A DNA stretch of 64,000 nucleotides, taken from NCBI RefSeq assembly GCF_003334815.1, contig NZ_QOWO01000004.1, one strand, 5' to 3'. Numbering within the stretch: the stretch's first letter is position 1; each line of letters starts with the position of its first letter. This stretch comes from Escherichia coli. GTDB lineage: Bacteria > Pseudomonadota > Gammaproteobacteria > Enterobacterales > Enterobacteriaceae. Below, piece by piece: positions 54,058-56,828 of this stretch. Below the pieces are notes generated by a model, which ran no database searches, was not told where the DNA came from, and was given only the letters and a program-made list of their open reading frames with translations. The position numbers and the translations under genes were made by a program.

Positions 54058-54134
54058 CGGCACGTAGCGCAGCCTGGTAGCGCACCGTCATGGGGTGTCG
54101 GGGGTCGGAGGTTCAAATCCTCTCGTGCCGACCA
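54058..54134 (+). tRNA. proL: tRNA-Pro (anticodon GGG)
   Basis: 77-nt sequence cggcacgtagcgcagcctggtagcgca...ggttcaaatcctctcgtgccgacca with cloverleaf-compatible acceptor stem, T-loop GGTTCAAAT and encoded CCA. Confidence 0.95.
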
Positions 54135-54145
54135 AAAATCCCAAG

Positions 54146-54176
54146 AAAAAACCAACCCTTACGGTTGGTTTTTTTA
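54146..54176. terminator. Bidirectional rho-independent terminator (proL / yejO)
   Basis: aaccaacc-cttac-ggttggtt hairpin flanked by A-tract and T7 tract. Confidence 0.75.
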
Positions 54177-54236
54177 TATCTGCAATTAATTCGATAAACA
54201 GACCGTGACACATCACAGCCTGTTTATTTTCTGTTA

Positions 54237-56828
54237 TCAGAACGTCCAGACCACACCCGCCTGAGTATTCCACGGCGATTCTACCCCTGCGCCATTGCCA
54301 TAGCTGACTGACAAATGACCGCTTAACGTCGGGGTAAACGATGACCTTATACCAGCCTGATAAACGCCACTGGTTCCAGCCACATCATTATTAAATTTGC
54401 CATCGTCATTAACTTTCACCTGGTTAGAATCGGCGTATTCCTGACGCACGGCCGCTTTCAGCCAGGGTTCCAGCGTCGTACCGTTTTGCAGGTCCATGTG
54501 ATAGCTTACCGCCGTTCCCGCTTCAGCGCGTAATATCCGGGTATTTCCCACATCCGCGCGCATGCCGTTTGATAACGTGTAGTCCTGACCATCTGTGGTA
54601 AAGCCGGTAAAGGCCAGATAGGGTCTAACACTCCACAATCCGTCAACCCAACGGAACCCGCTCTCAACATGAGCACCCGCGCCGTTACTATTGTAATCGC
54701 CAAACGCTGTTGCCCCATTACTCATCTTGCCATGGATGGTGTTGGCAAAACGGTCAACTTTCACCACCCCATCAACATAGGCACCGTTCTGATGCTCCCA
54801 ACCGGCATAAGCCCCCAGGGTATAGCTATCGATATTACCTTTGCCGCCGCGATCAAAACCAATATCAGAATGAGAGTAACCAAAGATCAAGCCGCGAATT
54901 GTACTGCTTTCTTCACGGGAGAAACGGCTATCGATACCGAGCGTCAGGCCCGTCAATGTTTGCTCAAAACCAGCTCCCGCATCAGTGGTCACGTTGTTGC
55001 GGGTGTTAATTGCCGAACTCCACATCGCCGTATCGTAACTAACGCCTTTTACGCTACCAAGACGCTCACGCACGGTGTCCAGTTCTGCATCAAATACCAG
55101 CGGTTGTGCGGCCGCCATATTCAGCACATCAGTGGTTGAAGGGGTAATTTGCGCGCGATTCTCTGCCAGACTCCAGCTATGGTTGCCATTATCCAGCAAG
55201 GTATATTCATACGTACCGATATCAACAACGCCTCCGGCATTGCCCAACGTAAATGCAGCATCACCGCCGCCCGTTGTTACCAGTGTAAGGCTATCTCCTG
55301 CTGCCGGGCTGGCACCGGTGTCCGTCACGAATATTTTGAAATCACCTGTTGCCTGACCGGTGACGTTGAGCTGATCGCTCTGATGATTAGCCATATCGGT
55401 ACGCATATAAAAATTGCCGTTTCCCGACAGGGTATTGGTGGTCAACGTAATGAAATTTTCCGCACTTGCCGTCACTGATGAACGAGTCACTGGCTCATCC
55501 ATCATAATCACATTTGCGTCAGACATCGCAAGGTTGGCTAAGTTGAGGAGGGTGTTTTGGTTCGTCGTAGTGATATCGGCAATGATGGTCCATACGCTAT
55601 TTTCGAGCGAAACGTCCGCTTTGCTGGTATCCACGGCACCATGCGTTCTAAAAGAAGCGCCCTCAGAAACCACTACCTTACCCACCAACATTGCGGGTGC
55701 ATAATTTATTTGCGGCTTCATGACCTCAAGAATGCCATCATTCCCTCTGACTGAAACGTTAACCATTGTGCCAGCCCAGACGTTAGCGCGGCCATTGTTG
55801 ATAACCATATTTTCAGAGATGGCTTTTGAGGAATACGTGATACTTCCATTCTGATATGATCGACCGAGATCATATACCGCATTTGCCTGCACTTTCGTAC
55901 CAGTATCCTTTCCCAGCGATTGCATAGTGGCATGCTTATCAAGGATAGTATCAATGGCCTGCGTGTCCTCCATAACAATGAGCCCGGAACCATCATCCAG
56001 TTCATAATTTTTTGACACACCATCTTTTATACTAAATTGGCCTTTACTGTTTGGACCACTCACTTCCAGCGCATTCGTTGAGACAATTAATTTTCCGCCT
56101 GCTTTTTTATCAACGCCAGTTACAGTCCCGCCATCCATAACCTCCAGTAAGCCGCCACTATCTACAGTGGTATTATAAGCGAAGTCATTTTCTTCAACTC
56201 GCAAACTTCCGCCGTTTTCCAACAACATATTATTAGCAATACCATTCTTGATATCGAACTGACCGAGACGGTTTGTTCCGAATACCTCCATGGCCCGCGT
56301 GGTTGTTTTAATAGCACCGCCTGCTTTCTGATCTACCGCAAATGCAAATCCCCCCTCTTTAACCTCCAGTAGTCCTCCCTTTTCGATAGCGACAAAGACG
56401 GCCCCCCCATCTTTTTCAACGATTAAGCGCCCGCCTTTAATCGTGGTATCATTCGCTGCGCCATAAACCTGTAGCACACCATTATTGAGCGTAGTCTGGT
56501 TTGCCGCGCCACCCATTTGAACAATTTGATAACCGTCATTTAATACTGAGTATTCTGCGGCGCCATTCATTTCAATGTACTGATACCCTCCGTTAATTTC
56601 AGTATTATTACTTACACCAAATTCTTTTATATGCTGTTCTCCGCCAGGATTGATTTTCGTATTATTGGCGGTCCCATAAACCAGCTGGATATCTTTTTCC
56701 AGGACAACACCATCAACTGTCTCACCATACTCAACAGTTGATGCCAATGCTATGGGTGAATATAACGCTGTAGCCACCAGAACAGATATTGCGGAACGAC
56801 AAAGAGAAACAGAACCAGATTGATGCAT
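54237..56828 (-). CDS. yejO: Autotransporter (type Va) adhesin-like protein, uninterrupted
   Basis: 863-aa ORF with signal peptide, Gly/Asn/Thr-rich repetitive passenger region and C-terminal beta-barrel ending VVWTF. Confidence 0.85.
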   Translation of the reverse strand: MHQSGSVSLCRSAISVLVATALYSPIALASTVEYGETVDGVVLEKDIQLVYGTANNTKINPGGEQHIKEFGVSNNTEINGGYQYIEMNGAAEYSVLNDGYQIVQMGGAANQTTLNNGVLQVYGAANDTTIKGGRLIVEKDGGAVFVAIEKGGLLEVKEGGFAFAVDQKAGGAIKTTTRAMEVFGTNRLGQFDIKNGIANNMLLENGGSLRVEENDFAYNTTVDSGGLLEVMDGGTVTGVDKKAGGKLIVSTNALEVSGPNSKGQFSIKDGVSKNYELDDGSGLIVMEDTQAIDTILDKHATMQSLGKDTGTKVQANAVYDLGRSYQNGSITYSSKAISENMVINNGRANVWAGTMVNVSVRGNDGILEVMKPQINYAPAMLVGKVVVSEGASFRTHGAVDTSKADVSLENSVWTIIADITTTNQNTLLNLANLAMSDANVIMMDEPVTRSSVTASAENFITLTTNTLSGNGNFYMRTDMANHQSDQLNVTGQATGDFKIFVTDTGASPAAGDSLTLVTTGGGDAAFTLGNAGGVVDIGTYEYTLLDNGNHSWSLAENRAQITPSTTDVLNMAAAQPLVFDAELDTVRERLGSVKGVSYDTAMWSSAINTRNNVTTDAGAGFEQTLTGLTLGIDSRFSREESSTIRGLIFGYSHSDIGFDRGGKGNIDSYTLGAYAGWEHQNGAYVDGVVKVDRFANTIHGKMSNGATAFGDYNSNGAGAHVESGFRWVDGLWSVRPYLAFTGFTTDGQDYTLSNGMRADVGNTRILRAEAGTAVSYHMDLQNGTTLEPWLKAAVRQEYADSNQVKVNDDGKFNNDVAGTSGVYQAGIRSSFTPTLSGHLSVSYGNGAGVESPWNTQAGVVWTF

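Follow-up and report, generated by a model that had tools for sequence, protein, structure and literature searches.

The stretch of Escherichia coli DNA analyzed here (64,000 nucleotides, hereafter the window) carries an uninterrupted copy of yejO. It is very probably the intact ancestral chromosomal gene for an AIDA-I/Ag43-like autotransporter of type Va, in a natural strain close to K-12 that never received the insertion element IS5K. The coding sequence occupies positions 54237–56828 on the minus strand, starts with ATG and comprises 863 codons plus the stop (ORF listing). As the original prediction had it, this is one continuous reading frame, with neither internal stops nor frameshifts. 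The gene lies 102 bp away from proL, the tRNA-Pro(GGG) gene found at 54058–54134 on the plus strand (ARAGORN; Rfam RF00005, 54.9 bits) and corresponding to b2189 in MG1655. The predicted vicinity of the two genes is therefore correct, the interval singled out at the time running from the start of the tRNA to the start codon of the ORF. The order yejM(lapC)–proL–yejO–narP–ccm is present in the window, and strain CUPF06 (NZ_CP182174.1) displays the same synteny together with an identical coding sequence whose product is WP_000554226.1, 'autotransporter YejO'. The exact protein of the window is found under this name on at least 1,000 contigs and belongs to a cluster of 16,859 members. Near-identity and synteny both place the gene in the YejO orthologue group (b2190).

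The annotation of the reference strain MG1655 lists yejO (b2190), 'adhesin-like autotransporter YejO', among the pseudogenes, split by IS5K, and published accounts agree that the K-12 gene is a pseudogene inactivated by this element (PMC11005336; PMC11677980). The interruption cited in the original prediction is thus real. The blastn comparison that it called for, run against NC_000913.3, aligned the window with both MG1655 fragments at 100% nucleotide identity. The two fragments overlap by exactly four bases (ATAA) and are separated by the 1,195 bp of IS5K; the K-12 gene differs solely by this element and by the 4-bp ATAA duplication after ORF nucleotide 67. The corresponding target is empty in the window, where ATAA is read on the plus strand at 56762–56765 (ORF nucleotides 64–67, codons 22–23, within the putative signal peptide; blastn), and CUPF06 provides the identical intact allele. 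The K-12 pseudogene is the derived state, in which IS5 was inserted after nucleotide 67 in the region coding for the signal peptide. Since MG1655 carries IS5K within yejO, the window represents a K-12-like strain without that insertion, as had been proposed.

The same proposal implied that an uninterrupted yejO would be out of the ordinary, and here the distribution of the gene says otherwise. The empty site is the rule: among 5,426 complete genomes of E. coli, 5,050 have it, against 358 that contain the K-12 IS5 junction. The observation is correct but ordinary and already known. It is the K-12 reference that is atypical at this locus, an unusual strain because IS5 split its copy.

The protein was described in the original prediction as the succession of a signal peptide, a repetitive passenger and a C-terminal barrel, and the Pfam domains as well as the N-terminal hydropathy agree with this description. 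The N-terminus (MHQSGSVSLCRSAISVLVATALYSPIALA followed by STVEY) has a basic R11, followed by a hydrophobic stretch from residue 12 to residue 22 (Kyte-Doolittle values up to 2.15) and by the motif A-L-A at 27–29. Residues 1–29 would form a putative Sec signal peptide (56742–56828, minus strand; sequence inspection and hydropathy) cleaved after A-L-A. The passenger contains an AIDA-type repeat region at residues 51–315 (55884–56678, minus strand; Pfam PF16168, TIGR04415 and PDB matches) with two strong AIDA repeat copies (Pfam, E-values of 7.7e-24 and 1.5e-21). Three stretches of YejO match the heptosyltransferase-target strand-loop-strand repeat TIGR04415, whose cutoff of 30 bits is exceeded with a score of 65.2. 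At its C-terminal end, residues 431–555, the passenger has a pertactin-like region (55164–55538, minus strand; Pfam PF03212, E 3.2e-45) that matches pertactin (PDB 1dab) and Vag8 (7akv) in sequence searches. It sits where an autochaperone segment is usual and by analogy may play that role. Residues 602–841 correspond to the β-barrel translocator, or autotransporter β-domain (54306–55025, minus strand; PF03797, E 8.8e-45), which also scores 369.5 bits with TIGR01414 (cutoff 16) and matches the BrkA barrel 3qq2 with an E-value of 6.6e-19. The protein terminates in GVVWTF, its last residue being aromatic as in the β-signal for BAM. The E-values of these domains are too small for chance and, judged by its sequence (signal peptide, passenger, barrel and C-terminal aromatic residue), YejO is a classical monomeric autotransporter of type Va. 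Its repetitiveness is detectable at the profile level only, through the Pfam AIDA repeats: Tandem Repeats Finder reported no DNA tandem repeats in 54000–57200, and a blastp search of YejO against itself returned the self-hit alone.

The passenger of YejO is homologous, on the basis of sequence matches only, to the solved β-helices of Ag43, TibA and pertactin. With antigen 43 (Flu/Ag43/Cah), YejO shares the type Va architecture and homologous passenger repeats (PDB 7koh, E 1e-36; 4kh3, E 1.8e-27). It is shorter, with 863 residues, than Ag43, which is about 1,040 residues long. YejO scores 130.7 bits with the Ag43/Cah equivalog model NF033177, whose cutoff is 1200, and is therefore no orthologue of Ag43; the latter is likely, by analogy, a functional counterpart in aggregation and biofilm formation. 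Similarly, YejO shares the AIDA-type repeats (PF16168) and the TIGR04415 match with the glycosylated adhesins AIDA-I and TibA and aligns with the TibA passenger 4q1q (E 4.5e-28); its score with the AIDA-I model NF033176 is 73.8 bits for a cutoff of 1200. No heptosyltransferase gene of the Aah/TibC type adjoins yejO, whose neighbors are proL and narP.

The intergenic regions on both sides of the gene provide some indications regarding its expression. Between proL and yejO, a hairpin with a 13-bp stem and a 5-nt loop, flanked by a run of A and, opposite, a run of T, is located at 54145–54175 (RNA fold). The segment 54135–54185 folds with −15.7 kcal/mol (z = −4.77) and none of 200 shuffled sequences was as stable. 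This hairpin is probably a bidirectional intrinsic terminator common to proL on the plus strand and yejO on the minus strand. It is absent from the output of the consensus terminator/promoter scan, presumably since its T-run forms part of the stem. On the opposite side, yejO and narP are divergent and separated by an AT-rich spacer (56829–57147, 36.4% GC) in which the yejO promoter presumably lies. The consensus promoter scan identified no sigma-70 consensus site in this spacer, and only a putative PyejO is mentioned in the literature (PMC11677980). The AT-richness of the spacer and its lack of a sigma-70 consensus suggest that yejO may be silent under many conditions.

This upstream region agrees with the idea that the ORF, albeit intact, is silent or decaying and without current function, in other words a pseudogene in waiting. 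The fate of yejO in other strains points in the same direction. Independent inactivations within E. coli include insertions of IS5, IS1 and IS4. Two strains have a stop at codon 789, and a further one carries a frameshift. Large deletions affect about a fifth of a systematic genome sample, an in-frame repeat deletion is also among the changes seen, and the gene is reported to be missing from ST131 (PMC5654935). Its loss in many lineages indicates that yejO is dispensable. However, intact alleles from different lineages exhibit dN/dS ratios of 0.18–0.37. The constraint is strongest in the barrel (0.04–0.15), and the AIDA repeat region evolves fastest (0.29–0.42). Selection therefore maintains YejO where it is kept, and E. 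albertii also retains an intact orthologue. We consider a pseudogene in waiting rather unlikely.

The original prediction also regarded yejO as horizontally acquired in appearance, at a place where variation next to a tRNA gene is expected. A tRNA-linked island gene would account for the proximity of proL and for base composition: the GC content of yejO is 48.2% versus 52.2 ± 2.2% in the 37 other genes of the window (z = −1.86), and its GC3 is 46.5% versus 57.3% (z = −2.34). The most AT-rich part of the gene encodes residues 1–330, the N-terminal third (GC 44%, GC3 37.6%), and the bin 56001–57000 is the most AT-rich kilobase of the window. The deviation from the other genes of the window, along the lines of a comparison advocated at the outset, is nevertheless modest (z about −1.9 to −2.3) and similar patches occur elsewhere in the window: other 1-kb bins are about as AT-rich, and the genes at 5616–7136 and 26202–27143 have GC contents of 45.4% and 47.0%, respectively. 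A scan of 100,044 species genomes, with exact octapeptide patterns that distant orthologues could escape, identified close homologues in E. coli and E. albertii only, which would also suit an island gene.

The genomic distribution and context of yejO argue against such an origin. All 5,426 complete E. coli genomes match the locus and 5,407 contain the 5′ end of the gene, whose position is constant throughout the E. coli genomes compared; where yejO is absent, internal deletions rather than empty att sites are found. The divergence of its alleles follows that of the flanking yejM and narP. In both the window and CUPF06, yejO is the sole gene between proL and narP and no integrase is encoded there. 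Searches of the 64-kb window for a second copy of the proL 3′ end, using 25 and 15 nt and allowing two to three mismatches, yielded none. The only direct repeat of the region, two copies of 17 nt with 88% identity, was judged to be due to chance. E. albertii NBRC 107761 encodes an intact 862-residue YejO with 77% identity over its full length. Its gene adjoins narP and ccmH, synteny being kept on the narP side, and the DNA identity of about 85–87% is comparable to that of the neighboring ccm/narP DNA. In the central part of the passenger, the divergence is too high for DNA alignment. At the spot where proL would follow, E. albertii carries a mobile element with a gene for a FinO/ProQ-like protein. 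Foreign elements at this locus insert between proL and yejO, as described for genomic islands (PMC4924310). The expected tRNA-adjacent variation is thus real, but it concerns elements located between the two genes and not yejO itself. A recent acquisition is ruled out by distribution and synteny, and the status of island gene is altogether very improbable for yejO. The Escherichia ancestor may nonetheless have acquired the gene long ago, given that the octapeptide scan returned no close homologue beyond E. coli and E. albertii.

The interpretation of the locus as an ancestral yejO in a natural isolate also implies that the window does not originate from a laboratory strain. Its NarP has F32, the form common in the species, whereas MG1655 has S32; a synonymous difference distinguishes the two sequences at narP codon 5, and at both codons the window agrees with a wild isolate. 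Some more differences with MG1655 lie within the first 25 kb of the window, where the best-scoring match to positions 1–25000 is CM2010-0578/1, from chicken. CUPF06, from pig faeces, differs from the window by two SNPs in 9 kb of DNA flanking the identical yejO. A derivative of K-12 that had lost IS5K through engineering (an IS-free or IS5-deletion strain) or precise excision would fit the near-identity to K-12 in the tested stretches and the existence of IS5 deletion mutants made at yejO (PMC11677980), but it is rejected as hardly conceivable in view of the narP differences, of natural isolates closer to the window than K-12 and of a site devoid of any scar. NarP F32 and the few other differences within positions 1–25000 hence exclude a cured K-12 as the source, and the window stems from a wild K-12-like strain, not from K-12 itself.

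From what is known of the family, YejO would follow the secretion pathway of type Va autotransporters. Sec would take the protein across by means of its 29-residue signal peptide, BAM would insert the C-terminal barrel in the outer membrane and the passenger, of roughly 570 residues, would be threaded to the cell surface. The latter is expected to adopt a β-helix of AIDA-type repeats with a pertactin-like cap. By comparison with its relatives, surface YejO would most likely be an adhesin or a self-aggregation factor. The searchable literature yielded no work on the function of intact YejO, and the adhesin role is therefore proposed by analogy only.

The repeated inactivation of yejO, alongside purifying selection on its intact alleles, suggests that surface YejO could be a liability in some niches. 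We hold it quite doubtful that these independent losses are adaptive instead of resulting from neutral decay. If this were true, YejO could, for example, serve as a receptor for phages, be targeted by immunity or cause undesirable aggregation, and so be shed lineage by lineage; K-12 would constitute one instance of this process. The intact natural alleles correspond to the K-12 sequence minus the IS and are usable for testing what YejO does. The significance of the present finding is small beyond bookkeeping, and it should be useful mainly to work on E. coli adhesins.

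An uninterrupted yejO reading frame with an ATG start occupies 54237..56828 on the minus strand (ORF listing) and encodes a protein of 863 aa. The adjoining tRNA-Pro gene proL (anticodon GGG), recognized by tRNA calling and by the Rfam tRNA model, lies at 54058..54134 on the plus strand, and the original prediction took in the stretch from the tRNA start to the yejO start codon. The N-terminus carries R11, a hydrophobic core and A-L-A at positions 27-29. AIDA repeats, two copies of them strong (Pfam, E 7.7e-24 and 1.5e-21), follow between aa 51 and 315, then a Pertactin domain at aa 431-555 (Pfam, E 3.2e-45) and an Autotransporter beta-domain at aa 602-841 (Pfam, E 8.8e-45); the protein scores 369.5 bits against the NCBIfam autotransporter barrel model TIGR01414 and ends in ...VVWTF. 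These data confirm the continuous frame, signal peptide, repetitive passenger, C-terminal barrel and proL neighbour initially described and the sequence places YejO among the type Va autotransporters.

The passenger is homologous to beta-helical adhesins of solved structure, namely Ag43 (7koh, E 1e-36), an AidA-I family adhesin (7ko9, E 1.2e-34) and TibA (4q1q, E 4.5e-28), while the C-terminal half matches Vag8 (7akv, E 8.6e-36), the BrkA barrel (3qq2, E 6.6e-19) and pertactin (1dab, E 5.9e-18). Orthology with Ag43 (130.7 bits) and with AIDA-I (73.8 bits) was ruled out, the cutoff being 1200 in both cases. The heptosyltransferase-target repeat model TIGR04415 is matched at 65.2 bits (cutoff 30), and no heptosyltransferase gene was found near yejO. 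By analogy with the family, YejO would be exported through Sec, its barrel would be inserted in a BAM-dependent manner and the beta-helical passenger would be displayed on the surface, where it could promote adhesion or self-aggregation. No paper on the function of intact YejO turned up in a literature search.

In the K-12 reference MG1655 (NC_000913.3), yejO (b2190) is annotated as a pseudogene joining two fragments, separated by IS5K (insH8) at 2288919..2290113; the annotation and the alignment bear out the IS5 interruption originally stated for this strain. The window is identical to MG1655 over 5,419 bp (51347-56765, 100%) and differs by 2 mismatches over the 2,387 bp of 56762-59148. Since these pieces share the four bases ATAA at 56762-56765 and are separated in MG1655 by the 1,195 bp of IS5K, the element is located after nucleotide 67 of the yejO frame, at codons 22-23, within the signal-peptide coding region, and is bordered by a 4-bp duplication. 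This duplication, ATAA (TTAT on the gene strand), is unlike the CTAA/CTAG targets cited for IS5 (PMC11677980). In BW25113, the yejO IS5 is counted among 11 copies (PMC11677980).

The gene is a known one, and its intact form is common, ancestral and already catalogued; it is the K-12 reference strain that departs from it. A 70-nt empty-site probe was covered to at least 80% in 5,050 of 5,426 complete E. coli genomes and the K-12 yejO/IS5 junction probe in 358 of them. The exact 863-aa protein is public as "autotransporter YejO [Escherichia coli]" on at least 1,000 contigs, and its cluster at 90% identity has 16,859 members. The 3.3-kb region finds a match in 5,426/5,426 genomes, a single place covering at least 80% of it in 4,285. 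Among 40 evenly spaced rows of this search, 21 were full-length, single-piece matches, 5 were IS-split copies (IS4, IS1 and three K-12-type IS5), 2 carried a 222-bp deletion, 3 began only past proL, 8 lacked about half of the region and 1 was a plasmid fragment limited to the tRNA end. The 44.6-kb E. coli plasmid record NZ_CP148393.1 shows a 58-bp match (91.7% identity, window 54083-54142) to the 3' part of proL and a few following bases, which may represent the attachment site of a proL-integrating element.

Fourteen of these loci were fetched. Seven of the 10 full-length alleles were intact (863 aa) and three were pseudogenes: TW10722 and NT1W25 have in common a stop at codon 789, accompanied in NT1W25 by ATT instead of the start codon ATG, and SMN152SH1 is frameshifted. 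Elsewhere, an in-frame 222-bp deletion leaves 789 aa in strain 114, large deletions leave only remnants in RM14723 and GPEC996, E2855 carries a frameshift plus stops, and yejO was reported absent from ST131 (PMC5654935). The gene has been inactivated many times, independently. In RM14723 (fetched locus L004, 1-1584), the annotation gives a frameshift in the essential gene yejM, which may reflect a sequencing error and not biology.

When one genome was scanned for each of 100,044 species, with a sensitivity limited to close relatives, a single relative came up, in Escherichia albertii; given that limit, yejO may have been acquired anciently by the Escherichia ancestor. The original prediction regarded yejO as the only horizontally acquired-looking locus of the window, a reading for which the data offer no more than a modest AT bias. 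Compared with the 37 other long ORFs of the window, yejO has a GC of 48.2% against 52.2 +/- 2.2% (z = -1.86) and a GC3 of 46.5% against 57.3% (z = -2.34), the shift being centred on aa 1-330 (GC 44%, GC3 37.6%), and the lowest 1-kb bin of the window is 56001-57000 (41.7%). However, the genes at 5616-7136 (45.4%) and 26202-27143 (47.0%) are equally low, and the bins 37001-38000 (42.0%), 23001-24000 (43.1%) and 1001-2000 (44.1%) are comparable to the yejO 5' region. Against an island stand the universality of the locus in E. coli and an allele divergence that follows the flanks (identity 97.3-100% for yejO barrel and middle, 98.3-99.3% for yejM, 98.7-99.8% for narP). No integrase was found between proL and narP, nor a second copy of the proL 3' end anywhere in the 64-kb window, and the E. 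albertii YejO is intact (862 aa, 77% identity over its full length).

The E. albertii locus is collinear from ccm/narP to yejO (85-87% DNA identity) and its alignment stops at window 54141, 7 nt beyond the proL 3' end position. The following 4 kb (fetched locus L016, 6683-10586) lack a tRNA and code for one FinO/ProQ-like and one weakly helicase-like protein, which suggests an element integrated at proL. The same geometry was described in Shigella flexneri 1c, where a prophage remnant lies between tRNA-Pro and yejO (PMC4924310). In E2855 (L003, 1-4000), a small phage-like element between proL and yejO, with genes for a RepA-family helicase, a small terminase subunit and a major capsid protein, resembles a phage satellite. 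Thus proL is a genuine integration hotspot, whereas yejO belongs to the backbone beyond the attachment site; the tRNA-adjacent variation originally expected is real and lies in insertions between the two genes rather than in yejO.

The window is K-12-like, not K-12, in keeping with the prediction of an allele devoid of IS5. Both mismatches with MG1655 are in narP: codon 32 (57242) reads F32 (TTT) instead of S32 (TCT), and codon 5 (57162) differs synonymously (ACG/ACA). The pig-faeces isolate CUPF06 shares both of these bases with the window, which makes NarP S32 look like a K-12 peculiarity; the yejO of CUPF06 is identical and just two other differences occur in 9 kb. These shared narP differences, and a chicken isolate matching 1-25000 best with K-12 derivatives slightly behind, argue against an engineered or spontaneously IS5-cured K-12.

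A strong hairpin (-15.7 kcal/mol, z = -4.77) bordered by an A-run and a T-run occupies 54145-54175, in the gap from proL to the yejO stop codon, and is probably a bidirectional terminator. On the narP side, the 319-bp spacer is 36.4% GC and a promoter scan found no consensus sigma-70 site in it, so yejO expression may be low or conditional. Elsewhere in the window, Rfam identifies the REP-derived nucleoid-associated RNA naRNA4 (CssrE) at 4450-4527 on the minus strand (88.3 bits) and the L25 ribosomal-protein leader upstream of rplY at 50317-50342 on the plus strand (46.9 bits).

Compared by the Nei-Gojobori method with six other intact alleles that differ from it in sequence, the window allele gave dN/dS values of 0.18-0.37 for the whole gene, 0.04-0.15 for the barrel and 0.29-0.42 for the N-terminal passenger. 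YejO is under purifying selection where retained, its surface-exposed part evolving fastest, and what remains mildly interesting is this purifying selection on intact yejO set against its frequent independent loss among lineages.
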